A stretch of 64,000 bases of DNA, taken from contig LSRY02000013.1 in NCBI GenBank assembly GCA_001643675.2, positions 372,001-436,000 of the forward strand, in the 5' to 3' direction. The notes under the pieces are model-generated. The model saw nothing but the letters and a program-made list of their open reading frames with translations, was not told the origin of the DNA and did no database searches. The DNA comes from Monocercomonoides exilis PA203 (taxonomy: Eukaryota; Protista; Preaxostyla). Every line of letters begins with the position of its first letter. Within the stretch, counting starts at the first letter, position 1. Both the position numbers and the translations under genes were made by a program. Below, piece by piece: positions 5,040-58,949 of the stretch.

Positions 5040-8000
5040 ATGGGAAAAGCCGACAAAAAAGTCGATTTATCCGATGTGCAATTTTCTACCTTCGACAAAG
5101 CATTATTTGGAACTCTTTTTGCTATGTCAAAGGTATGATAAATGAGTATATTACATGTTTATAATAAAAATAATAATTTTTCATTTTTAGGGAGAAGGTG
5201 AGGATGAAGGAGAAACATGGTTCACATATGCTCCTTTAGTATTCGAAATACTTCAGTGCGTCGGGTTGCCAGTTCAAGAAATTAGTTGCTGGCCAATGGG
5301 ACCTACAAAAGATGTTATAATGACTGCATTTGATTTTATGGATTTCCAGTTTTTTGTTGAAACTCCTGTAATGTCATACATGCTATTTTCCGTGCTATTT
5401 ATTATGATTATGGGATCAATTGTTGTGTTCGGAGCTCTTATGATTGTGTTTAAGAATGGAGATTCACGTGTCCCACTTCCACTTGTACGTCTTCTCCGTG
5501 TTATCACAAATGCTTCAGTTACGTGGGGTTACCAACCAATGATTACAATTATATTTATGATTGTAGATTGTCATTGGGATTCTGGAGTCGGCATGTGTGA
5601 TGCATTTCCTGAAGTTAAATGTTGGGAAGGGGCTCAAGCTGTCTTCAATGGGCTTTCTTTGTTTACATTGGCAATATTTCTGCCGTTCACGCAATTCATC
5701 ATTTTGTTTTTATATGAATTTGATTGTAAACATAATGTACTGATGGCAGCTTTTTCTGGTCGTTATGAATTTGTGGAAATGCTCACAAAATGTATTTTGA
5801 CAGCACAATCACAGTGGATCTCTCGCTATTACGAGGTGCGAGTGATGTCATGTATTATTGGGTTCACTTTCCTGATGTTCTACATCATGTGGATGCAGCC
5901 GTATTATTCGCTGCACACGAATGTATTTGCATCAGGCCAATATGCGTGGTCTGTCACCACATCTTTCTATGCGTGGATCTCCATCTTCGTCGAAGGCTCG
6001 GGGGCTCTGGTGATAACGCTGTTCTGGCTGACGTATCTGATATCGACAGTCTTCCTCACGTTCATCATCTGCCTGTATGCGCGGCAGATCTATCTCTCTC
6101 GCTGCGGGCTGACATACGACTTCCACATCCCTGTCAAGGCAGGCGTTCCGTTCAAGAAGAAAGTGCAGCCCTTCTTCAAAGAAGTCGTCCGGGTGAAGTA
6201 CAGCTACATCCGCGGGTTCGTCCACGAGTATCCAGAAACAGACAACGGAAGCACACAAAAGGAGCAGCAAGCAAACTTCGGAGACACTCGAAATGCCACT
6301 CCAGGCAATAACATCACTGCATCTCCGCCATCATCTTCCTCTTCCTCTTCCTCTTCTTCCTCTTCATCATCATCATCATCTTCTTCTTCTTCTTCTTCCT
6401 CCACTTCCTCTTCCTCTTCCGTGTCTTCTCCCCCTCAGTCTGGCCAGCCTCCCCTCTTCTACGGCATCCGCTCCTCTCCCGACGCCACCACCTTCCCCTC
6501 TCTCCCCACCACCCTCTCTGCCTCCACCACACCTGCCCCTTCCTCTTCCACCTCTCCTCTCCTCCGCCAGCCCCCGCCAGCCACCGACGGAGCCGGCACC
6601 AACAGCGGCTCGTCTTCCCCTCGCACTCGTTCTCTTCGCACTGTTCTGCAGCAGCGAATGCCTCAGCTCAGCCAAATCAGCGCAACTGTCTCGCCCACAC
6701 AGTCAGATGCGCCTTCTTCCCTTCTTCCCGATGAGACAGCGGATGGCAGAGAGGAAGTGCCGTATCTGCTGCCGAAGCTGAAGAAAGTGTCGTGGGTGGA
6801 CCAGTCGATAAGGTTTGTGTGGAATCCTGAAGTGCGAAAGAGGAAAGAGTATTTGGAGTATGCAGATGCCATCTACAGACAGGCGCTGATCAGATTCCCC
6901 AGGCACCCGGGGTTGAGAGTGCATTATGGCCTGTTTTTGTACAAGTACAAGAAAGACTGGGAAGGATGCATGAAGCAGATGAACATGGCACATCGTATTG
7001 GGGCCACGATTGACAACCGCTGGATGATCTTCTACATCTTCAAAGTTTACGAGCAAGAGCACTCAGGAGCAGATCTGAAGTCCGCGAATGTGCTGTCGCT
7101 GTTCCGGTACAAGAACCATCTGTCGCAGGCTGAGCAGAACCAGCGAGAGGCGAAGGAGAAGCTGAACACAGTGCTGTCGATGCTGGCGCAGGGTGACACA
7201 GACGTCGGCTCCATCTCTTCTCTACTCGACCAGCTGATCGACAACGAGAGGGAGGCAGACAGCCACTACAGGGCACTTCTTGAGAGTCATCCCTTTTCCA
7301 TTCCTGTGCTGAGAGGGTATGCGTCACTGCTGACAGATATCTTTCGGTTGGACTCAGAAGCAGAGCTGATGTATCAGAAGGCGAATGAGATTGAGGCAGA
7401 GATGAGGAGGATGAACCCAACAGAATACAAGTCTCAAGGGAGAGTGAAGGGGACAGTGGACAAAGTTGGAGCGAGAAAGGCACCGATCAGCGGAAGTGGC
7501 GATGAAGGCGGGGCATCAGGTGATGGGCGGAGCGGGTCAGGGTGGAAAGGGTCGACAGGAGATGTGTGGTTTCTTGTGTTGAAATATGGCTCGCCCTTTT
7601 CAGTGATCATCTTTCTGGGTCTGTTGTTGGGGCTGTTCTTCTCTGGCTTGTCAAATGTGAGTGACATGTCGCAGCATGTGGTGATTGTGGAGAGATTGTC
7701 GTCAGCTGCGCGGCTGAACAACGAGCTGGCGTATCTGGCAAAGCTCTACAACATCCACCGATTCAGCGAGGTGCCTCTGAATGGCTACTTCTACACGATG
7801 AGCGAGACAATCGAGAAGATGTCGGCGATGGCGCAGGAGCTGCACTCACAGACAGTCAACTCTCTCTTCCGGATGTCCTCACGCTATCTCAACTGGCAGG
7901 CAACAGAGCAGACCACATTCCTTGCCATTCACGAGAACAGGTTGCTAAGCTTCCAGCACGCACAGAGCCAGACGCTTGTCAATGCAGTCAATGGCTATGC

Positions 8001-10479
8001 AACAGACATGTATCTCTTAGCTGGTCTGTCTTCTGATCTGTCAGACGACTCAGCACTTGATATAACCATCCAGTCGCTGATGAATGGCCCAACGTCGCTC
8101 GACCAGAACTTCAAAGTGCAGCTGTGCAGCCTCATCAACACACTCGCCAAGCACAACATGACAACCATGTGGCTCGCCATAGCCATCGGCATCATCGGCG
8201 TCGTGCTCACGCTGGTTGTCGTGTTTGTCGTGTACATCCTCCTCACCCGCTTGAACACACAGAGGAACTCTGCCCTCTTCTTCTTCCTCGCCATCCGAAG
8301 AGACGTCCTCCACGACGTGCAGCAGCGCCTGGCGAACTCAGACGAGCTGGACAGAGGGCTGCTGGGAGGGTCAGGCAGCGATGCAGAGAAGAAGAAGAAG
8401 GCGCGGTGGAAGAAAGCGCTGAGGCTGGGCCATGTGATGAACGGCTTCCAGAACGGGATGTTGGGACGCCCGCCGCCACCTGCTGCGCTGATGGCTGAGC
8501 CGAACAGGATGATGATGAGGAGGCCGAGTTTTGCAGCGATGGAGATGATGCGAAGGAGCGGGGCTGCTCTGCCGCCGCTGATGGGAGGACAGCCACAGAT
8601 GATGGGAGGAGGAAGTGGAGGTGGAGGTGGAAGTGCAGATGCCAACCAGCACTCGCAGTCAACATTCACTCCTGTGCAGCACCTCGACCCGTCGATGGGG
8701 AGGCTGCCACCAGTTGCACCAGGACAGATGGGCAAACCAGGTGTGCCGTCGCTCTTCCCCTCTGGCTCGCCTTCTTCGTCGTCGTTGCTGTCTCCCACAG
8801 CTCAGGGTCCATCCTTAGCATCTTCCTCTTCCTCAACTTCAGTTTCTGCCTCTGCTGGTGCCTCAGCCACAGCCTCAGCAGCTAACTCCCACCCGCTCAT
8901 CCCTCCGCTCATCTCTTCCTCTGCGTCTGTCTCCAGCATCATCAACAACCGCACCTCTGCCTCCAAACTGCCCCTCAGCCCGCCGATGAGTGGAAGGCCC
9001 ATGTCTCCTGGCGGCACCACAGGAAGGAACACAGGAAGAGGCGCCGAGACATCGCGGTCGAGGGTGGAGAGAGAGAGAGAGCTGAAGCAGAGGATTAAGG
9101 AGAAGAAGCGACAGGAGCTGGAGAAGCCGCCAGAGTTTGCTGAGATGGTCATTCCACCCGTGACGAAGAAGCGGAGGAAGAGAGTGTTTCAGAATGCTGT
9201 GCCTGCTTCGATGATTGCGATGATCATGACGCTCTTTGCGCTGATGGTGATTGCCTTGCTTGTCGTTGTGGCGCTGTCGATCGTGGCGACTGTCAACATG
9301 CAGCCCTGGCTCGCCCGTGTAGGCATCGCTGGCCTGCGCTCCTCGTCTGCCCAGCTTCTTCATCTGCTTGCTCTCCTTGTGATTTCTCCAAACTCCAACG
9401 GCATTATGAACTACTCAGCCAACCTGCGCTCTTCACCTGGGTGGAAAGGGCTGGAGCACCTACAGCCGCAGAAAGAGGATGTGCTGGCTGTTTATCGCAG
9501 CTTCAGCACAGACTTCGACCATCTGCACGATTTGTGCCGGTTTGGGGAGATGGGCGAGTCAGGTGACAGTGTCATCGACGATGTGGATGTGTATGACACG
9601 TTGGATGTCTCGTCTATCCGTCCTATCCTGTATGACGAGAGCACCTGCTTCATGATCGACAAAGGTGTCTGCTCAGCCAGGCCCAACCGCATCCCCACCA
9701 CAAACATGGGCAACGGGGTGCCTGTGAATGGGATTGAGGCACTTCTGCAGCAGCTGTTCCGCTCGTCTGACCAGCTGCGTCTGTTTGACCCAGCCATTGC
9801 AGACATTTCCACACTGAATGCAGACTCCACCTCGCTCATCTACATCAACACTGCGCTGTCGTATGACCTCTCTGATGGGCTGTTTACAATCACAACTGAA
9901 CTGGCGAGGGCAGCGCAGGCGACGTTTGAGACACAGAAGGTGTTTCTGTATGTGGGATTTGCAGTTGACATGGTGCTGATTGTGGGGGTGTTCTTCTACA
10001 TCTTCTTCCCCGTGCAGTCACAGCTGAACCACGTGGCATTCAAGACAGGGAGAATTCGAGAGCTCTTTCCGATTGAGGAGACGATGGCGATTCGGTGGAA
10101 CAAGGCATTCAATTTAGGGGAGCAGAAGCTGGATGGGAATCACCGGCTTTTACTTGACACAGCAGCAAGTATGGTGGACATACTGATCAAAGGAGAGGAA
10201 AAACTGTTTCCGAACAGTTATGCACAGATGAAGAGTGTGTTGGATGTGCATCTGAAACAAGAGAGCAAGTTTATCACGGGGACGCACCATCCGCACGCGA
10301 AGAAGCACATCCAAAAGATCAAAGAGTTCAACAAGGCGTTTGATGACTTGGTTACGAAGTATGAAGACGGGCTGGATGTGACAGAAGCGATGTTCCATCT
10401 GTTCAACTACTTCATCGACCACCACATCATCGAAGACAACAAGCACATACTCGACTTCACAAAGGACAAACACACTTGA
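5040..10479 (+). CDS. Large multipass membrane protein, TmcB/TmcC-like (N-terminal multi-TM block, TPR-like domain, two TM-loop-TM modules) with C-terminal hemerythrin-like domain
   Basis: Exon 1 5040-5132, intron 5133-5190, exon 2 5191-10479 in frame. Hydrophobic segments at ~5370-6090, 7560-7650, 8170-8250, 9200-9300 and 9940-10010. TPR-like YADAIYRQALIRFP and EADSHYRALLESHP..LRGYASLL. C-terminus has W..F.LG..LD..H, HLKQE, KKH and HHIIED. Confidence 0.8.
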
Positions 10480-46543: not shown

Positions 46544-49500
46544 ATGATCATACTACATTTTGTTGCATACATTTTGTTTGGAATTGTTAGTTGTTACGAT
46601 GAAAGAAAGCTGATTGATGAGTATACGGATAAGTATTTTAATTTCATTGAGTTGTTACCAAGAGACAACTCAACAGAATGCTTTGCCATAACAAATAATA
46701 GATTTGATGAATGCAAAAATATACTGGAAAGTACATGCCCGCGTGAATGCCTTTCATCACCAAATTACACACTTTGCATCAAGCAATGCAGAGAGGAAGG
46801 TTTGTTTTCAAATAGTAATTTTTCATAGAAGATAAAGGCAATTATATTTATCATCGCTCGTTTAGAGCTTTCTGTTTGTGGGAATAATCTTGTTCACCAG
46901 AAAGAAATTTGCATTTTCCATATTATTAGCAACTGCCGCAACTCTTATTTAAAGTGCGTTGATAAATCAAAGTTCAGATGCAGTCGGTTACCCGAAGGTT
47001 TATAATTACGTCCGCTTCTTTTTGACTGTATTATTCTCTTTTATCATTTCATCAGATGAATCTTCACAATGTTTAATGGATTCAGTTGCAAAATGTGGAC
47101 TAGATTATTCGAACTGTGTTCGTTCTGTACCACCAAATGAAGGTTTTTTATTTTTTTTTTTTCGAAATACTTTTTTATATGTTGTAAATCAACATTTGTT
47201 TTAGAATTTTCTTCACAATGCTCAAGAACATGCAAAATCATTCTTGATCGTTGTGAGTCAAGTCTGATTCAAACATGTTTACATAAATGCCCTTCAAACA
47301 ATACAACATCATCATTTGGCAAAAATGCTGCAACGGACAATCAAATGGACGGAATCGATGGGGAATGTCTGATGAATTGCATCAACAAGGATGCTGACCT
47401 GTGCTATGTTCCCTATGTTGAATGCATCAACGGGTGCAGCTCAAATTCACGTCTTTCTAATTCAACAAATGCCGCAAATGACACATACGACTCGAGTCTT
47501 AAAAGGACGATGGCATTTCACTCGAATCAACATTTGACGCAAGATGCAAGCATATCTGAAACATGTCGCTATGAGTGTGAAGGAAGTATGTGCTTTTTTT
47601 TCCTCTTTAAAAGAAAGAAAGAAATTTTTGTTAATATCTTTTTTTTTTCCTTTGAATGATTCATTTCTTCAGATCATGATGAGTGTGTGACTGCGTGTGA
47701 TGACAAGTGCTTCACGATTTGCGCAGTCTACAAAGGAAGCAACGGATCATACGAAGCAAGTGAAGATTGTGTTAAATGCCTCAGCCGCTGCATCAGAGAA
47801 TGCATTCCGCAAGAAGAGGAGTGTGTGAACCGTTGTATCGAAAGAAAGGTTTTACAATAAAATTATTGGAGAAAAAAAGCAAGTTGATGATTATTTTATT
47901 TATTTCTGTTTCTTCATGTCATATCACATCGCATTTTTTTATATAAATTAATTTGTTTGTGCCAATCCCAGCAACACGACGAGTCCCTGTCTCTTTGCTC
48001 AGAGGAGTGCCAGAAGGCGACGCGTATCTCCACCCAGACCGCCTCGCAGCATTGTGCGCGGATGTGCAGAGGGGCGTATTATCTGGACTCGTGCATGGGG
48101 CTCTGCATGTCAGAGCAGATGGACCCGATCACAGAGCAGAACGACAAGTGCAGAGAAGACTGCCGAGCTGCGTTTGCGAAGGAAAGCTATCAGTTGGATG
48201 TGACAAATGGAAAGGAAGAAGGAAAAAAAGAAGAAGGAAAAGAAGGAAAAGAACAGAAATATGCTGAGCCGGAGGAAGGGAGGAAGCGATGTTTGGATGA
48301 AGTTTGCTGTTTTCTGCTTTGTTTTTGAATTATTAATAGCATTCGATTTTGCCCAGTGCAACATAACATTAAGAGATTGCTCAGAAGAGCTGCGAAATTT
48401 CTGTGCTTCTGAATGTCAGAGCTCTTCTTCCAAAAAGGAAGAAGGAATAAAATGCATTTCTGACTGCCTCTCTTCGAATATGCACCAATGCGTAGATTCC
48501 TTTGCTGACTGTGTTGGCGTGTGTGCGGATGCATTCAGCCCTTCTGCTGCTTCCACATTTAACTCACCATCTTTCTCCGCTTCTCCTTCTAAAAAGATGA
48601 ATTGGGCTGACAAAAGAAATGATAATTATGATTTCGACGTTGAACCTGATTCATTTCAACAGCAACAACAACAGGAACAAGAGACGAAAAGCTTTTTGAA
48701 TTCTCAAATTCCACTGGAAGAACTAAATGTCAGATTGAAACAAACACAAACTGGAGAGAAACAACCAAATCAAAACCAGTTTGCTTCGTCAAATGAACAT
48801 TTTTCTCGTGATTTTCAGAGTGCGTCAACAAATTCTGAAGACAGAAAAGCAAATCCGATTGGCGAGCAGGAAAATGAAGTTGAGCTTTCCGAAACAGAAA
48901 AATGCATCGATGAAGCAATGGAAGACTATCTCCGGTGCCAAAACGACGCGTTGGAGCAGTGCAAGAGCATGCAGAAGATGAACTCTCCATTCAGAGGGAA
49001 CAGAAATGCCAACGGAGAAGCATACGAAGAAGAGGAAGAAAAAGATGAGGAAGAAAACGAGAACTATCACAGCTGCCTCGATGCTATGCTTTCTCAGTGC
49101 TCTTCATACAACTTTCGCTTGACTGGAATGTGCATGGGGAAATTTCTGCAAAAAGAGCACGAAAGCGCCGATCAGCCAGCTGACGATGAAGCACAAGAGG
49201 AAGCGATGAATTCAGCCTCTTCTCCTTCTTCTCCTTCATCCTCTGCCTCTGCTTCTGCCTCTTCTTATTCGCCTTTGTCTAATCCTCCGCAGAGTTTGAG
49301 GGCGATTCGGCAAGAGATGAACAAGTGCAACGACCGATGCGACGTCAAAGGCGACAAATGCCTGGGCGAGTGTGCAAGGCAGAAGAAGAGGATGATGCTG
49401 AAGCTGAGTCTGTCCAACGGCACAGCACAGCCATCCGACAGCCAAACAGCCGGCGGCACTCAATTTGAGCGTGGGGCAGATGGATACGCGTCGGTTGTCT

Positions 49501-50644
49501 TTCAGCAGCGGAGCTCGGCGCTGGCAGAGCAGACCGGCAGAAGCTGCGCCGATGTTTGCGAGGACGAGTGGCTGTCGTGCACGAATGTGTGCGCTGATGC
49601 TGCCACACAAAAGATGAAGCAGCTCAAACGAAGCGCGCTGGCGAACGAGTCTGACCCAGTTTTGTCGCACTCGGCAAAGGACAGCATTGACGATGACTCG
49701 TCTTCGTTTATGCCACCTCAGTCGATGTTTGGAGAGGATGGCATGCAGCAGATGATGATGATGATGCAGATGATGCAAATGATGCAGATGGCACAGTCGA
49801 TGGCAATGAATCCTCCGTTCGACACATCTCAGTTCAACTCTTCATCGACTGCGACAGCTTCTTCTTCTTCTTCTTTCGACTCTTCAAATGACACATTCAC
49901 ACCTCCATTCAGCGACATGCCGAATGATTTTATGATGACTCAGTTCTTTTTCTTTGCAGATGACCAGCCTCCTTTCGGCATAAACCCATTTGGCGAGCAC
50001 TTTGGCCAGTCAATTCCAAACTTCTTTGGAGAAACCAGCCAAAACGAGAATTATGGAAGCACAATTCCTGATGAAGACGATGAGAACGATCCGAAATACG
50101 ACGACTGCGGAACACAAAATGATCGAAATGAGAATTACACAGCGAATGATGAAAGTTCTGATGCGATCGAAAGTTGCTTAAAAGAAAAGAAAGAATGTGA
50201 AGCTGATTGCCGTGGCCTCAAGCAAAGTTTGTTTTGAATGCTATTTTTTTCTTTGATTGAACGACTGTTTTTTATCTTTTTATGCAAAACTTGTTTGTGT
50301 TTTATTATTCTTGTGAAGGATGTGTTATGCGCCTGAGGAACGAAGGAAGGCCAACAGAGGAAGTTTATCGGCATTGTGCGAATGTGGAAGAAGAATGTCA
50401 AAGTGAGTGCGAAGATGCCTTCAGCAGCTGCACAAACACTGCTCCTGCTTCGCACAGCAAGAAAAGAGCGTTCCATCGGCCAGGAATTGCTGAGTCTGTT
50501 TTGGGGAAGAGACAAACACGCGCCATTCGCAGGCAGAGCACTGCTCGCAACCAGATGTTTGACAGAGCTGAAAGTGAAGGGCATCCCAGCGACAACGATC
50601 GGAGCAGAGAGGAAATGATGTATTTTGCTCAGCCACGTCGTTAA
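46544..50644 (+). CDS. Large secreted cysteine-rich protein with repeated CX3C motifs
   Basis: Signal-peptide-like MIILHFVAYILFGIVSC. About 8 exons (~46544-46799, 46866-46997, 47055-47141, 47204-47586, 47673-47848, 47972-48301, 48340-50226, 50319-50644). Dozens of CX3C and CX6C spacings. Confidence 0.75.
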
Positions 50645-50992: not shown

Positions 50993-52127
50993 TTAATGAA
51001 ATCCAAATAGAGCGTGTTTGAACACGTGTGTTGCTAATGCTGTTGATTGTTCAGAAAGTATCTTCTGAGCATCCTTCAAAAGTGTTGAAAACGCAGTCTT
51101 CTTTCCACGTCCATCAGCTGCTTGATTGCTGCTCATTTGCTGCATCTTCTGAGATAATTCAACAAGCTGCTTTGTATAATAATCTTGATTCTAATTTTTA
51201 ATTAAAATATTTTCGAATAATCAATAGTGAAAACAATATGATGCTCAAATCAGACAAATAAATTAGCACACAAGTAAAAATTGAGTTGTGGAAACAGTGT
51301 TCACCCAATATTTTCTCTGTAATGCAGTAAGAACTCTTTTATCTGTTGATGATTGGAAAAATGTGGTATCCAGTTTGTAATATCGATGAGCCTGTGAACC
51401 CCAATCCTCAAACTTAGCTTGGGGAACTGATTGATATTCTAATTGAGAAGTTTCTGGTTGATATCCTTCTGGATATGTTCTGAATGCTCCTATCTCCACT
51501 CTTCCAGAGGACATTGTTCGCACAGGATCAACAACAATTGCCAAATATGGATCAAGCGCTTGATTGAGCGATTGTGTTGCAACATCAATTGCAGACATCC
51601 AACATCCGTACCCAGGATGTGAATGATACCATCCAACTATTTGTTCGGGACGTCCCAACTGATAAAATAAAAGAAAGCGAAATTTTTTTCGCATTATTTA
51701 AGTATTGTTATTTAAATAAACTCATTTTCAATCAAAAAGCAATCACACCTCCGTTGATAAAATAGCATATTGTGCCATGTATGAGTTTGCTTGATCTCCT
51801 GCATTGACTCTTGTCTCTGTTCCTTCAACAGGAAGAGCGAAAGCATCCATAACATAAAATGTATTTGGTGTTACTTTTCCCTGTAAAATCCCCATGACTT
51901 CGAGCTTGCCTCCCGCACATGCGTGCATAACTAATTTAAGTAAAGCTAAAGCGGATATCTTCACATTCTGAAAATATTTTGGACTTAAAATATTGTCAAA
52001 TAAAAAATAAGTTGGCACTCAAAATAAAGTTATACTTTTCCTTCCATGGCATCTTATCAGTAAATGCTCGCTGTTGTTCAGCGTCATAACGAAAAGGCTC
52101 ATCTGGATCCGAAAAACGCTGGGTCAT
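50993..52127 (-). CDS. COPS5: COP9 signalosome subunit 5 (JAB1/MPN+ metalloprotease)
   Basis: Four exons. [52 protein letters not shown] and EIGAFRTYP. Confidence 0.96.
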
Positions 52128-52271: not shown

Positions 52272-54227
52272 ATGTCTGATTTCAACGTAGATAATGATAT
52301 ACCAAAGAGTTTTAAAGTACTAACTTGTATTATATTGCATTATAAATATTATGATTTTTGTCTTTCCTGTTTTACTTTTGTTTGCAGAGATTATTAGCTG
52401 TTACAAAGAGAAAACAGCTCAACCAAAGGATTCCAAAAGGACCAGATAGGCCTCGGAACATTGACTTCGAAGAAGAATCAGAAGATAATGTTTGAGTGAA
52501 GTTTTGTCGTATATATTTATATGTTTTTTGAAAATCAGTCTTCTGATTATGAAATCAGAGAAGATGAAAGACTGGCTGAATTTGGGTATGCTACTCATTC
52601 ATTAGAATGAATGAAAAAGAATGCAATTATGATATGATGAAATGCTTTTTATTTTATTTGTTTAGCGCTCGTTTACGTCAAAATAAGGCACATGAATTAA
52701 GAAAGGAAAGGGTGAAACAGACAAATCGGTACAAAAAAAGAATGGAGTATGTGAGTTCGAACTTTTTTAGATAACTTTATATATATTCGTTGTTTTTAAC
52801 GTAGATTTCTTGAACGAAAGAAAGAGAAGCAAAAGAAAACAAAAGAAAAGAAAGCACATAAAGATGAAGATTCTTCATCTGAGGGTGAGAACACTTCGTT
52901 TGGATTAAATCGTGGAAATTTGAGAGCAGAAACGGATATTCAGAAGAGATGGACAGTGAAACTTCCAGATGAAATCGAAGCTTTGCAAGAACAGAAGAAA
53001 GGAAAAAAAAGAGCGCTGGCATCTGAAAGTGGAAAGAGAAGAATGGAAGAATTGAAAAAGAAACGAAAGAGAGATGATGAAGGTTTGCCGGATGAAGAAA
53101 AGATGAAGGTGGATGAGCTTCTATCTGAAATCACGCTTTTTGGAGGAGGGGGTCGTAAAAACAGAGCAAGTGGAACATCAAGCAAAAGTCGAGCAATGAA
53201 AAGGATCAAGCGGGAAGAAGAGAAAGAAAGAAAGAAGCTTCTGAAAGAAAAGCTTCAAAGAGAAGAAAGAGAGAAAGAAAAGAAAAGACAAATGAAAGAG
53301 AAGAAGAAGAGAGTGCAGCAAAAGATGAAGGAGCAGAAAATGAGAGAAATGCAAGAGGCGGAAGAAATGAAAATGAAGGAAAAAAGAGAAGAAGAAACCA
53401 GCAGCCAAAAAGTACTTCATGAAGCAAAGCCCATTGAAACAGCGGTTATCGACGATGCGCAATTGCTCAAAGAAATAAACACATCAACACCTGCAGCGAA
53501 GCAGAAGAGAAATGAAGAGAAAGTGAAAACGCTTCTTCTCACATCAATGCTAAATTCATCCAAAGGAACCTCTTCGCATTCAAAAGCAACAACAAAATTA
53601 GAGCCAACAGAACAACAAGAAGATGAAAAATCATCAGTTTCTGATCTGCAAACCTCAGCTCCAGTTCCTATCAAAATTTCAATTTTTCCTGCTTCTGCTT
53701 CGACACACGTTGTCCCAGCTTCTGCAATGCCCCGACCAGCAAAGCGAGCATCAGCAGTATCTGCCATCTCCTCTTCTCCATCGATGGAACAGTCGAAAAT
53801 GCAGAACAGTTCAACTTTATCAACAACACTTACAAATCCAATGGACAAAACGTTGGCTGTTATTAAGCCAGCAAGGGATGTTTGGGAGAAGCCAACAATT
53901 GTTCTTCCGTATCTGAAAGCAATGGAGAAGAAGAAGAAAGCGAAGCGGAATGCTGAAATGAGAGGGTTTGATGATGAAAGCAGCATGGACGATGAATACA
54001 GCGATGAGTCGGACGATGACTCGTCAATTGGAGGAGATGAAGATAGTTCGGAGGAAGATTACATTCAGGAACTGAAAGAGAAGCAAAGCAGATATCAGGA
54101 AATGGAAAGAAATGAAGAAAAAGAAAGGCAGGCAAAGAAAAACAGAAGAAAAAGAGTGAAGAAGATGCTGTCACAGACATGGGCAAAGAAGAATGCCGAT
54201 AAATTAGCTGGCGACAGGTTTGATTGA
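52272..54227 (+). CDS. Hypothetical highly charged (K/E/R) coiled-coil protein
   Basis: Several short 5' exons followed by a long exon ~52805-54227; no family recognised. Confidence 0.65.
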
Positions 54228-54891: not shown

Positions 54892-56424
54892 ATGGAATCC
54901 AGTGCTGATCGGCGCTCAAAAGAAAGGTCTTCTTCAGCCTTAATTGAACGTGAAGAAAGGTCTCCGTCTCCTTCATCTTCACCAGACTTCGAAGATTACT
55001 CAAAACCAAAGAAAGAGAACTTTTTATGGAAGTACAGAATGGTGATTCCAAGTTTGTGATTAATTTTATCTTCAATCGCATTTGATATGCACTATTTTTA
55101 TTATGAAGATGGCTTAACGATGGGAAATGCATTGAGTGGGGTGTTTGCAGGATATTGTGCTGTTCATCACAAACCAATGTGGTGCTCGTTTTTAGTTGTT
55201 CTTGGATTTATATTTGGTACGTATAAGCATCTTTTTATGTTATTATTTATTGTTTTGGTGGAATTTTCGCAGATGCATTTGATGGACCAGCTGCGCGCCA
55301 TTTGAAATGTAGCGGAGATTTTGGCATGTTCATGGACAGGTAACTTTTTTATTTTTATATTGTAACATAATCATTATTTGATACTTTTTGATAATAGTCT
55401 TGCAGATGTAACAACATTTGGCGTTGCACCAACTCTTGCATTGCTTTCATATTTTGAAGAAACAACAGCTGGCATCGGAATTGTTCTTGGTGTTGTACAT
55501 TTCACTTGCACTGTTGTACGATTGGCGAAGTTTATGACAGAAGATGGTCCACCTGGAGTATTCCGCGGAATGCCATGCCCATTTGCAGGTGTTTTCAATG
55601 CGGCTGTTTGCGCAGCTGGTTTGGATAAAAAGTGGATCATTGTTGGTTCACTGATTCATTCATTCTATATGATTGATTGGGATACCTTGTATATCAAGCC
55701 ATTCTCTGTGAATGGAAAATTGAAGCTGTCATTTGTGTGGTTCCTCCACTTTTTGGCCCTGTTTTTGGCATCCAACAGAACACCATTTTCTCATATGTTG
55801 CTTGCCCTTATTCCAGTGTGCTACGGAACAATCCCTGTGCTGGTACGCTTGTACAGATGGATGTTCAAACACGCGAAATCGCCTGGCGAATTTGATTATG
55901 TGATGACTGTGGGTGTGTACGATATGTTCCATCGTGGTCATCTGGAACTGTTCTCGCACATGGCTGTCATGGGAAGGAACGTGTATGTTGCTGTTCACGA
56001 CGAAAAGAGCGTGTATCAGAACAAGAAAGTGCGTGTGACTGACTCGCTCGAAAAGAGAATGAATAACGTCAGCAAATTGAGAAGGGTAAAGAAAGTGTTC
56101 CCTGTCTATACTGGTTTGCTTATTTGTCTATTTTTTTGAAATAATAATTATTATTTATGAATGAAATTATTGAATTTTATGTTATAAATTTTCTTTGATG
56201 ATTTTCTTTTCGCTTCATCAGCTGATCCAACTCCGGCTATTAAAGAGATGCTGGATGCAGTTCCTAAGGGACAGAGCGTTGCTTATATGCGAGGTGATGA
56301 TTGGATTGAATTCCCCGGTAAGCCGTATCTGGTTGAACATAACATACCAATCATCTACCATCACTACACAGAGGGCGTTTCGTCTTCTCTTCTCAGACTC
56401 GCCCGCCAACGTCATACAATTTAA
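54892..56424 (+). CDS. Fusion of PssA-like CDP-alcohol phosphatidyltransferase and HIGH-type cytidylyltransferase
   Basis: Exons 54892-55051, 55109-55216, 55273-55339, 55398-56113, 56222-56424. IPNGLTMGN, DAFDGPAARHLKCSGDFGMFMDSLADVTTFGVAP and FRGMPCP, followed by GVYDMFHRGH, VAVHD, RGDDW and YTEGVSSSLLR. Confidence 0.9.
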
Positions 56425-56966
56425 TTTTCAATGTTTCTTTTTTGTTCCTTTGTTCTTTTCGTTTTGTTGTTGTGCAAATTCCTTTCCCTTCAGTTGTCTT
56501 TTGTGTGGTTTATTCCAACAAAAGACGTTTTTTAGAGTCTTTTTATTCGTTTTTTCAAATCATTTTCAAGTAAAATGTTTCACTCATTTTGAAAAGTGTT
56601 GTATTTTTTTAAAAGGAAATGTATCGAGATATTAATATGCTTTAAGCAAAGCTCAAAAGAAGCAAATGATTTTCATCTTTCGAAAATAAGTTGCCCTTTA
56701 GTGGTGAACATAATAGAAGAGTATTTCTAAGAAAATATCTTTCTCTTTTCATAATCTATAATTCAATTCTTTCAGGTTGGAAATCAGTCTTTTCCAGCTT
56801 CTTTTTGCTGAATGGAAATTTGCTTTGCGTAAGCTGAATGTATTGGCAAACTTCTTTTTCAATAAATAGCGTGTTGTAGCACATTTCCCAATTAATCGCA
56901 TTTTATCTCTATTCCGTGTGTTGTAAAAAATAAATAAAATAGTCAATTTGCGAATCCTTCTGCATC

Positions 56967-58248
56967 TCAACCTAATTTATTCCCGTAACCAGTTGGATGA
57001 TCGTCCTTCCATTCATCCATCTCCATCTGAGATTGTCTCTTCTCGTCAGAGTCCTCATTGCTATCATAGCCTTCTTCTTCTTCTTCTTCTTCTTCTTTCC
57101 TGGAAAAAATTCAATTTAAATTTGATATTTTTTGGAATCAATTGATTGCAAATGAATTCACACCTTTTTGACTTTAGCTGTAAACTTTCTTGAGAGATTC
57201 TTTCAAACTGCCTTTCTGCTTCCATTTGTTGCTCTTGCTCAAGAGAGTAAGTCCAAGTTTTGACAGGCTTAAAAACATTTTCCATCCTTTCAGCTCTTGT
57301 TGCCAAAAATGGTGACAAAGATGATGTGTTGCTCAGAATTTTCCCAGTCGTCCATTGTACGGGGCTAGATTGCTGAGAATAGCATGGAGCAGCAATGTTC
57401 GAGTGTTTAACACAACTCAAATCTTCTTGTATTGTAATGTTGCTTTTTCCAAGTGAGGAGGATAGTTTTGTTCCACTTTGTGTTTTCCTTGAACAATTTC
57501 TAACGGATGCTTCTGATAATTCAGTTGAACTCTTCTCTCTTGCTTCCAAAAGGTTTAGCTCTCGTGAAATATTACAAAGTTCTGTAAGAGCAGAAAGTGC
57601 AAATAAATGTAGTTGTAAAATATTCAATTTTCGTAATTCATTCTCGTCTGAAAAGCTAAGATCAAGATCATCATCATCGTTTGCTTTGTTGTGCTTCATT
57701 AATTCGGAGATCTGTTTTTCAAGTGCCTTTTCTTCTCCCATTTTTTCGAGTGCCACATCCCTGGATGATGTGATGTGCATGAAATTTCCTTTTTGAATTT
57801 CAGAAAATGCATTCTTTAACAGCAAATTACTTTCAAATTGAGAATAACTGTTGAGAATTGATAGAAATGTTTTATAATATTGTTGTGCTTCTATTAGAAC
57901 ATTCTTTCGCGTGTGTAGTTTAAATGTGGTTCTTGACACAAGGAATCCTTGTAAAAATGGAATTGAAAGAAGGCGAATATCCATTGATGAAAGTTCAGGT
58001 AATTCAAGGGTTTCACGAAGAGTATGGTACAGCCCCAAGGACTCCGTTAAAGTGTTGCATCGTTCAAGTATGTTCAATGCAGTTTTTATTTCAAAGTCAC
58101 TAGCAGAATGTGATTTTACTTTTTGATATATCCGAAAGGATCTCGCAAAAAGACAACCCAGTGGTGCTTCATGAGCTTCATCCGTTATGTCCTGCTTTAA
58201 CGAACAATCTTTAATTTTTGAATCATCTTCCTGATTCAATAAGCTCAT
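56967..58248 (-). CDS. IGBP1: TAP42/alpha4 PP2A regulatory subunit
   Basis: ELSSMDIRLLSIPFLQG, A..YYKTFL, RAERMENVFKP..TYSLE; last exon after intron ~57100-57162 encodes DEWKDDHPTGYGNK. Confidence 0.85.
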
Positions 58249-58949
58249 AAATCATTTACAAATATATATTATAATGGTTCAATAATTTTTCTCTAGAAAA
58301 TTAACGCAATTATTCTTAATTATATCTCTTTACAAAAGCCTCATGATTAACTGAATTTTAATTTGGTTAATTTGTAGTTTGAATTATGTGAAAAAGTCAA
58401 AATCTTTATTTGCACTGAAATATTCAATAAATCACATCATAATTCTATTCATAGTAAGTGTTAATAATGGCGGACACTTTCCATAACTGTGGACAGTAGT
58501 ATTATCTCAACGATCGTTTATGAAAGATTGTAGTAGAATTCTCATTTAGACTTTCTATGAATTCAAATAAAAATTAATTGTTTCAAACACACTTCCATCA
58601 CAAAAAAATATTATTAATCACCATTTTTTTTCTTTATTCTATGGAGCAGATTGTTTCATTTTCGTGAGTCACATAAATTTGCATAAGAAAAGGGAATAAA
58701 TAGGTTCATTGTCGAAATGTAACTTTCAATGGTTATTGAGATAATAATGTTGAACACAGTTGTTGAAAGTGTACGCCTGATTAACACTTACAATACGCTC
58801 TTTCAATGCACATATCCTTTTCTTTCATATCAAATTTGGACATTTGTAATAATAATTATGCATTTCACATTTGGATGAATATTATTTGGAGAGTGAAGAA
58901 AAATCTCTGAACATTCAACATCCGAATAAAGCGGTGATTTCATAAAATA

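Follow-up and report, generated by a model that had tools for sequence, protein, structure and literature searches.

What does a cell make with a membrane phosphotransferase and a cytidylyltransferase that are joined in one polypeptide? This question is raised by the gene MONOS_3854 of the protist Monocercomonoides exilis PA203, which lies within a stretch of 64,000 nucleotides of contig LSRY02000013.1 (positions 372,001 to 436,000 of the forward strand; this whole stretch is the window in what follows, and coordinates refer to it). The original prediction was that the protein may activate a head group and transfer it to a lipid, in a self-contained route resembling the Kennedy pathway or in the synthesis of an unusual phospholipid. 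Our analyses point to a different pair of activities, and the reading that we tentatively propose is that of a housekeeping phosphatidylserine (PS) synthase joined to a cytidylyltransferase that would make CDP-glycerol and would feed the serine site of its partner.

The gene occupies positions 54892..56424 of the forward strand and consists of five exons (Table 1). Its open reading frame (ORF) starts with the ATG at 54892, its stop codon ends at 56424, and removal of four AT-rich GT..AG introns leaves 1254 nt that encode 417 amino acids (aa), a spliced translation identical to the database protein P0002 (M. exilis MONOS_3854). The Pfam family PF01066 is matched at aa 50–181 (61.2 bits vs. a cut-off of 22) and PF01467 at aa 281–409 (43.8 bits vs. 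a cut-off of 21). The RNA evidence consists of contigs from 4 runs of one study, whose coverage begins at 54999, so that the start codon lies outside it. All 4 runs have RNA contigs that skip introns 2 and 3, while intron 4 is skipped in those of 3 runs and intron 1 in those of 2, and a single spliced RNA contig of 1307 nt covers 54999–56583 and hence both domains. The introns are retained in DNA contigs, and the junction is bridged by contigs of X1, X2, X3, and X4. Because the RNA and DNA contigs support the structure, and because none of the 13 coding variants of the RNA contigs changes an amino acid (6 lie in the N-terminal and 7 in the C-terminal half), whereas intron 4 by itself carries 8 substitutions among the variants, the fusion gene is real, transcribed, and apparently under selection. 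A gene-model artefact is ruled out by the spliced RNA contigs, the DNA contigs, and the conserved orthologues described below, and the earlier statement that the junction lies inside one exon is likewise borne out, the linker mapping within exon 4.

The N-terminal half is, on its fold, its position in a tree, and its serine pocket, a predicted type II PS synthase (PssA). In the AlphaFold (AF2) model, whose mean predicted local distance difference test (pLDDT) score is 84, with values of about 50 for aa 1–40, eight helices span aa 44–267; the best Foldseek match is the PS synthase of M. jannaschii (MjPSS; 7B1K, template modelling score of 0.81 by target length), and 7B1K and 7POW make up the top four matches. 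The alignment used in this connection set the C-terminal helices of prokaryotic rows at wrong positions. The CDP-alcohol phosphotransferase motif DxxDGxxAR...GxxxDxxxD is present in full (D90–D115), with the metal and CDP residues D90, D93, R98, D111, and D115. In MjPSS the catalytic serine site is formed by D62, S63, D66, and F105, metals are bound by D41, D44, D62, and D66, and anions by R101 and R104 (PMC8633023; for this and the other papers cited, our statements cover the searched portions of the text and supplements). An HMMER alignment to MjPSS, with a chain numbering offset by 3, matches the serine site (Ser1) residues D62, S63, D66, and F105 with D111, S112, D115, and F157, and D41, D44, R49, and R101 with D90, D93, R98, and R153. 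The fusion protein thereby shares with type II PssA proteins (MjPSS 7B1K/7POW; TIGR00473) the eight-helix fold, the full motif, the serine pocket, and the R101 equivalent. It differs from them in its additional C-terminal cytidylyltransferase, in its N-terminal tail, in a lysine (K156) at the position of R104, which is also found in several prokaryotic PssA matches, and in its TIGR00473 score of 89.6 bits, below the equivalog cut-off of 107, as is also the case for 55 of the 66 matching Asgard genomes. Separate phylogenies of the two domains, which the original prediction had proposed, place the N-terminal half inside the PssA clade (support 99/98 in a 48-row tree that holds no CEPT row and carries a long-branch warning at its root) and the C-terminal half in a clade of its own outside TagD and ethanolamine-phosphate cytidylyltransferase (ECT). 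The acceptor is most likely serine and not diacylglycerol, and a Kennedy-like route is therefore not supported; an activity as PS synthase that supplies phosphatidylethanolamine (PE) by way of PS decarboxylase is, in our estimate, probable.

The C-terminal half belongs, as judged from its motifs and tree position, to an uncharacterized HxGH/RGDDW cytidylyltransferase subfamily that is nearest to TagD yet lies outside it. The HxGH (H290–H293), GDDW (G375–W378), and terminal SS motifs are kept in 3/3 full-length homologues, and the clade is marked by the motifs HDxxS, RG[DN]DWxxFPG, and YTxG[VI]SS. An inactive domain is ruled out by these and the transferase motifs for M. exilis and Blattamonas, and for M. 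exilis also by the silent variation, so that the earlier claim of two intact domains holds. The closest solved single domain by phmmer, profile, and Foldseek is the glycerol-3-phosphate cytidylyltransferase TagD of B. subtilis (1COZ), with a profile score of 59.6 bits vs. 43.6 for the N domain of ECT; human ECT has the best summed two-domain score, and among the fold matches 1COZ is followed by the phosphonate cytidylyltransferase Fom1. With TagD/TarD (1COZ, 2B7L; TIGR01518) the domain shares a single HxGH unit with GDDW, and unlike them it is joined to a membrane enzyme. ECT/PCYT2 and the choline-phosphate enzymes CCT/PCYT1 belong to the same HxGH superfamily, and the fusion differs from them in its one domain in place of a tandem and in a clade apart from that of ECT. 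PCYT2 also produces CDP-glycerol (PMC8587909). We consider it highly probable that the cytidylyltransferase is active, and a little short of an even chance that CDP-glycerol is its product.

The presence and absence of other M. exilis genes rest on published orthogroup tables and supplements. Those of PMC10703272 list for M. exilis a CDP-diacylglycerol (CDP-DAG) synthase (MONOS_7541), a phosphatidylinositol (PI) synthase, two PS decarboxylases, and a glycerol kinase (MONOS_2542), the last of which can supply the substrate of the C-terminal half. The sole M. exilis PS synthase entry of the manual table is MONOS_2656, and the other PS synthase orthogroup, q2010125, holds no M. exilis member. Since these tables hold a CDP-DAG synthase, two PS decarboxylases, and no member of another PS synthase orthogroup, we infer that the fusion protein is the M. 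exilis route to PS and then to PE. MONOS_2656 is a near-identical second copy of the fusion gene (416 of 417 aa identical), and the contigs of 54892–56424 carry mixed variants, of which gene copies or alleles are the source. The published annotation is PS synthase, EC 2.7.8.8 only (PMC10703272 supplements).

Two further full-length homologues have been identified: P0010 from Blattamonas (153/225 identical aa in the N-terminal and 99/136 in the C-terminal half) and P0011 (95/222 and 89/136, respectively). Metagenomic matches comprise four single-exon fragments, and P0003 crosses the junction. As members of the orthogroup, the table of PMC10703272 lists two M. exilis genes, one of Blattamonas, and one of Aduncisulcus. 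A related arrangement is found in the Helarchaeota genome Hel_GB_A, where a subfamily domain (39% identical) is fused to a PS decarboxylase (CT-PSD) and a pssA gene starts 36 nt downstream. In the 48-row tree the oxymonad domain is grouped, with a support of 95/93, with this pssA and with P0019, a protein from a metagenome-assembled genome, and the oxymonad/Helarchaeota grouping recurs in all 7 finished variant trees (three IQ-TREE, four FastTree); the PssA sample is small and was selected in part for similarity to the query. Within the set of a second careful tree, a proline after the DG of the motif occurs only in P0002, P0010, P0019, and the module pssA (0/30 other Asgard PssA, 0/16 other PssA matches). 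Asgard CT-PSD domains are also among the top BLAST scores of the C-terminal half. The CT-PSD/pssA module looks accessory, because Hel_GB_A encodes CarS as well as an additional, ordinary PssA that falls among other Asgard PssA sequences. From these relationships a shared origin of the oxymonad fusion from a pssA-cytidylyltransferase gene cluster appears plausible, and we claim no donor. The CT-PSD and extra pssA pair was seen at L056:5983-8166 and also at L055:2272-4455, with a PS decarboxylase of bacterial type; a CT-PSD fusion was also seen at L057:1742-3028 and in L067, where the contig title is Ca. Deferrimicrobium and the coordinates are those of a genome from the Asgard phylum search, so that its title conflicts with its placement.

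The subfamily has other partners as well. Among 63 longer proteins picked by length from the matches, its domain has as fusion partners LicD, SPX, PS decarboxylase, and CDP-alcohol phosphotransferases, the last of which either precede or follow it; the fusions with the phosphate-sensing SPX domain are P0035, P0069, P0120, and P0146. With the oyster protein as query, 101 proteins were obtained, whose sources include molluscs, rotifers, a brachiopod, a nemertean, amphioxus, and a sponge. Both PF01066 and PF01467 are present in 68 of them, and the transferase comes first in 64 of the 91 proteins new to this search. The architecture check that the original prediction had called for is thus answered in two parts: the Pfam pair is common, and its uniqueness is ruled out, while the common proteins have a different transferase and are uncharacterized in the literature searched. 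These invertebrate and protist proteins (Crassostrea, Lingula, Adineta, Branchiostoma, Sycon) share with the oxymonad fusion the domain order and the cytidylyltransferase subfamily, whereas the invertebrate transferase is PgsA/PIP-synthase-like, has no serine pocket, and is not placed within the PssA clade. The PssA version has for this reason arisen separately, and a common origin of the two fusions is ruled out by the transferase tree, with the long-branch warning at its root. The conserved uncharacterized invertebrate protein is represented by P0034, P0028, P0046, P0047, P0101, and P0213, and a Branchiostoma member is labelled PCYT2 though it is not ECT-like. No paper linking this family to aminoethylphosphonate lipids was found, and no cnidarian is among the named matches of the oyster search.

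Of 54 viral loci, the best 16 were analysed, and in 14 of these LicD is adjacent or fused to the subfamily domain; it was not found among the scanned ORFs of the other two (L008 and L011). Fukutin and FKRP are members of the LicD family. They use CDP-ribitol or CDP-glycerol (PMC8587909), and the viral LicD partners thereby point to a small soluble donor. The viral module combines LicD and the subfamily cytidylyltransferase with GT2 glycosyltransferases or methyltransferases, in phage-like loci (L001–L005 and L007) and in giant-virus-like loci (L006, L009, L010, and L012–L016). The genome scan with P0145 and the viral scan with P0019 gave no match, phage GenBank records gave one weak match, and none of 83 partial matches in plasmids covered 80% of the query.

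The mechanism that we propose has three steps. The N-terminal half would convert CDP-DAG and serine to PS, as the PS synthase of the cell; the C-terminal half would use CTP to turn the phosphate of a small alcohol, with glycerol-3-phosphate as the likeliest candidate, into a CDP-alcohol; and the N-terminal half would also join this product to serine at the same serine site. The hand-over, whose product would be glycerophosphoserine or a lipid made from glycerophosphoserine, is one to which we give nearly, though not quite, even weight, and the mechanism as a whole we hold to be somewhat less likely than not, the PS synthase step being much safer. Its model is provided by IPCT/DIPPS (A. fulgidus AF0263) and Af2299, in which a nucleotidyltransferase is likewise joined to a CDP-alcohol phosphotransferase that uses a soluble CDP donor, and the fusion would work like IPCT/DIPPS without being a member of that family. 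The nucleotidyltransferase of IPCT/DIPPS, which has a different fold, is N-terminal, and the score against NF041135 (IPCT/DIPPS) is 17.9 bits vs. 580, with a match to the membrane half alone, in agreement with the earlier statement that the two fusions differ in fold and have opposite orders. The membrane domain of IPCT/DIPPS has six helices, vs. eight here, and the solved structure of Af2299 contains bound CDP-glycerol (PMC8633023). Both termini of MjPSS are cytoplasmic (PMC8633023), and by analogy the C-terminal half would sit on the face of the active site. The idea of activation followed by transfer within one polypeptide thus remains plausible in its logic; its lipid part, transfer onto diacylglycerol, is not supported.

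Several observations weigh against this proposal. For the C-terminal half, the TIGR01518 (TagD) score is 25.3 bits, far below the cut-off of 165.4, and HldE adenylyltransferase models stand above TagD models in NCBIfam (37.1 vs. 25.3 bits), so that the nucleotide itself is not settled, CTP use being likely. The clade separates from TagD-like rows at 92/85, with a bootstrap that is not fully settled (the first cytidylyltransferase tree was made by a quick method), and the arginine of the RTxG(I/V)S motif is replaced by a tyrosine (Y399). Of the TagD lysines K44 and K46, which like this arginine have functional roles, K46 is retained as K322 and K44 aligns to N320. The transferase motif of P0011 has decayed, with changes at D93, G94, R98, G107, and D111, while its C-terminal half retains the identity given above, which suggests that this half can persist without a working transferase partner. 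As to the Helarchaeota relationship, the grouping falls below 80 in the second careful tree, while the three IQ-TREE variants give it SH-aLRT/ultrafast bootstrap values (the latter just 70–86) of 89/72, 91/86, and 70/70, and the four FastTree runs 0.86–0.94; the cytidylyltransferase tree leaves the sister of the oxymonad domain open and does not resolve the two domains as sisters; and among 400 genomes of the archaeal phylum the module domain was found in just 2, with a pssA neighbor in one of the two. PS decarboxylases are known to prefer lipid substrates, to which soluble glycerophosphoserine is a poor fit, and we know of no PssA that uses a soluble CDP donor.

The decay in P0011 also bears on an alternative in which the halves are independent: the N-terminal half would be an ordinary PS synthase, and the C-terminal half, merely anchored to the membrane, would make a CDP-alcohol for another transferase or sense CTP. 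Housekeeping PS synthesis requires CDP-DAG only, which is available from MONOS_7541, and in viruses the subfamily domain is solitary or feeds LicD. The domain has, however, repeatedly been joined to CDP-consuming transferases, which come from different clades and stand either before or after it, it is part of a pssA/psd module in Helarchaeota, and a text search of the supplements found no LicD or fukutin entry in the searched parts; we regard independence as a lesser but serious possibility. The cellular partners of the domain, which are mostly enzymes of the CDP-DAG pathway (PssA, PgsA/PIP-synthase-like transferases, and PS decarboxylase), and the linker of just ~9 aa would also suit a new CDP-lipid synthase, tethered to the membrane, that activates phosphatidate or lysophosphatidate and channels its product into PS synthesis. 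Such an enzyme is improbable in our view, given that a CDP-DAG synthase is already present in M. exilis and CarS in Hel_GB_A, which weakens the idea that the cytidylyltransferase substitutes for an absent CDP-lipid synthase, that the near viral relatives accompany LicD and glycosyltransferases and point to a soluble donor, and that soluble phosphates are the substrates of all solved relatives.

Two further alternatives assign a head group to the C-terminal half. If it made CDP-ethanolamine or a phosphonate analogue, the N-terminal half with serine would form a serine ethanolamine phosphodiester, the synthesis of which is EC 2.7.8.4. The intact serine pocket and the ECT and Fom1 matches described above are in accord with this, yet the domain is not part of the ECT clade, the published table (PMC10703272) lists no oxymonad protein in either the ethanolamine kinase or the ECT orthogroup, and no entry for PEP mutase or phosphonopyruvate was found by text search, at least in the searched parts of 11 supplementary files; we consider this product quite unlikely, and the phosphonate head group of the original prediction finds no support. 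Least probable, and very much so, is the Kennedy-like route itself, in which the C-terminal half would activate a head group and the N-terminal half transfer it to diacylglycerol. At the Pfam level the domain pair does correspond to the last two Kennedy steps, and the absence of canonical ECT from the oxymonads of the orthogroup table leaves a gap that it could fill. Against this stand the PssA-type transferase with the whole MjPSS serine pocket, its place inside the PssA clade, and the lack of any listed orthogroup member for a head-group kinase. In addition, no de novo phosphatidylcholine (PC) route was found in M. exilis (PMC12308965), though PMC6759080, at odds with that paper on PC synthesis, states that PC, PE, and PS are interconvertible in M. 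exilis.

Table 1. Exons, introns, and predicted protein domains of MONOS_3854 in window coordinates.
Feature	Coordinates	Strand	Remarks
Exon 1	54892..55051	+	Start codon; S/P/E-rich low-confidence N-terminal tail (aa 1–45); start of helix 1
Intron 1	55052..55108	+	57 nt, GT..AG
Exon 2	55109..55216	+	Splicing in RNA contigs
Intron 2	55217..55272	+	56 nt, GT..AG
Exon 3	55273..55339	+	Bulk of CDP-alcohol phosphotransferase motif, D90 to D111
Intron 3	55340..55397	+	58 nt, GT..AG
Exon 4	55398..56113	+	Remaining PssA domain, linker, first half of cytidylyltransferase; contains fusion junction
Intron 4	56114..56221	+	108 nt, GT..AG; 8 substitutions among sequence variants (DNA contigs)
Exon 5	56222..56424	+	Second half of cytidylyltransferase; stop codon
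PssA-type membrane domain, aa 46–267	55027..55863	+	Eight predicted helices
Short linker, aa 268–276	55864..55890	+	Fusion junction
HxGH cytidylyltransferase-like domain, aa 277–413	55891..56409	+	HRGH 55930–55941, RGDDW 56290–56304, YTEGVSSS 56365–56388

The fusion gene is flanked by genes for a JAB/MPN (CSN5-like) protease (51263–52018, reverse strand) and a TAP42-like protein (57064–58251, reverse strand), and no lipid gene was found among its scanned neighbors. Two long ORFs without a Pfam match are located at 48204–50237 and 52800–54227, both on the forward strand, one of them Cys-rich with a hydrophobic N-terminal stretch and one of low complexity and charged. Positions 6001–10000 of the window have a GC content of 0.54–0.57, vs. 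~0.33 in the rest.

Both folds are already known, as is the fusion of a nucleotidyltransferase with a CDP-alcohol phosphotransferase as a concept. In the open-licence papers searched, no description of a PssA-cytidylyltransferase fusion or of the RGDDW subfamily was found, and the searched portions of bioRxiv 10.64898/2026.02.12.704994 and PMC10597341 do not treat the fusion. A broader proposal, which is speculative and which we judge rather unlikely as a whole, is that RGDDW cytidylyltransferases are the shared entry step of unrecognized glycerophosphodiester pathways that start from CTP and glycerol-3-phosphate and lead to glycerophosphoserine in oxymonads, to glycerophosphoethanolamine in Helarchaeota (CT-PSD and PssA), to a diester of glycerol or of inositol in invertebrates, and to glycans decorated with glycerophosphate in viruses. 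Under this proposal the oxymonads, having lost the Kennedy pathway, would have taken up a prokaryotic pssA-cytidylyltransferase module as one gene, which would also be the PS/PE route of M. exilis.

Our analyses name a likely source of PS and PE, an enzyme of prokaryotic type, for the first eukaryote found to be without mitochondria, a gut protist. They also expose an unstudied cytidylyltransferase subfamily that has several times been fused to head-group enzymes, including those of a conserved, uncharacterized protein that occurs in molluscs, rotifers, amphioxus, and a sponge. If the proposed coupling of the two halves is true, the fusion would contain a PssA that uses a soluble CDP donor and would in this respect be unlike any characterized enzyme known to us.
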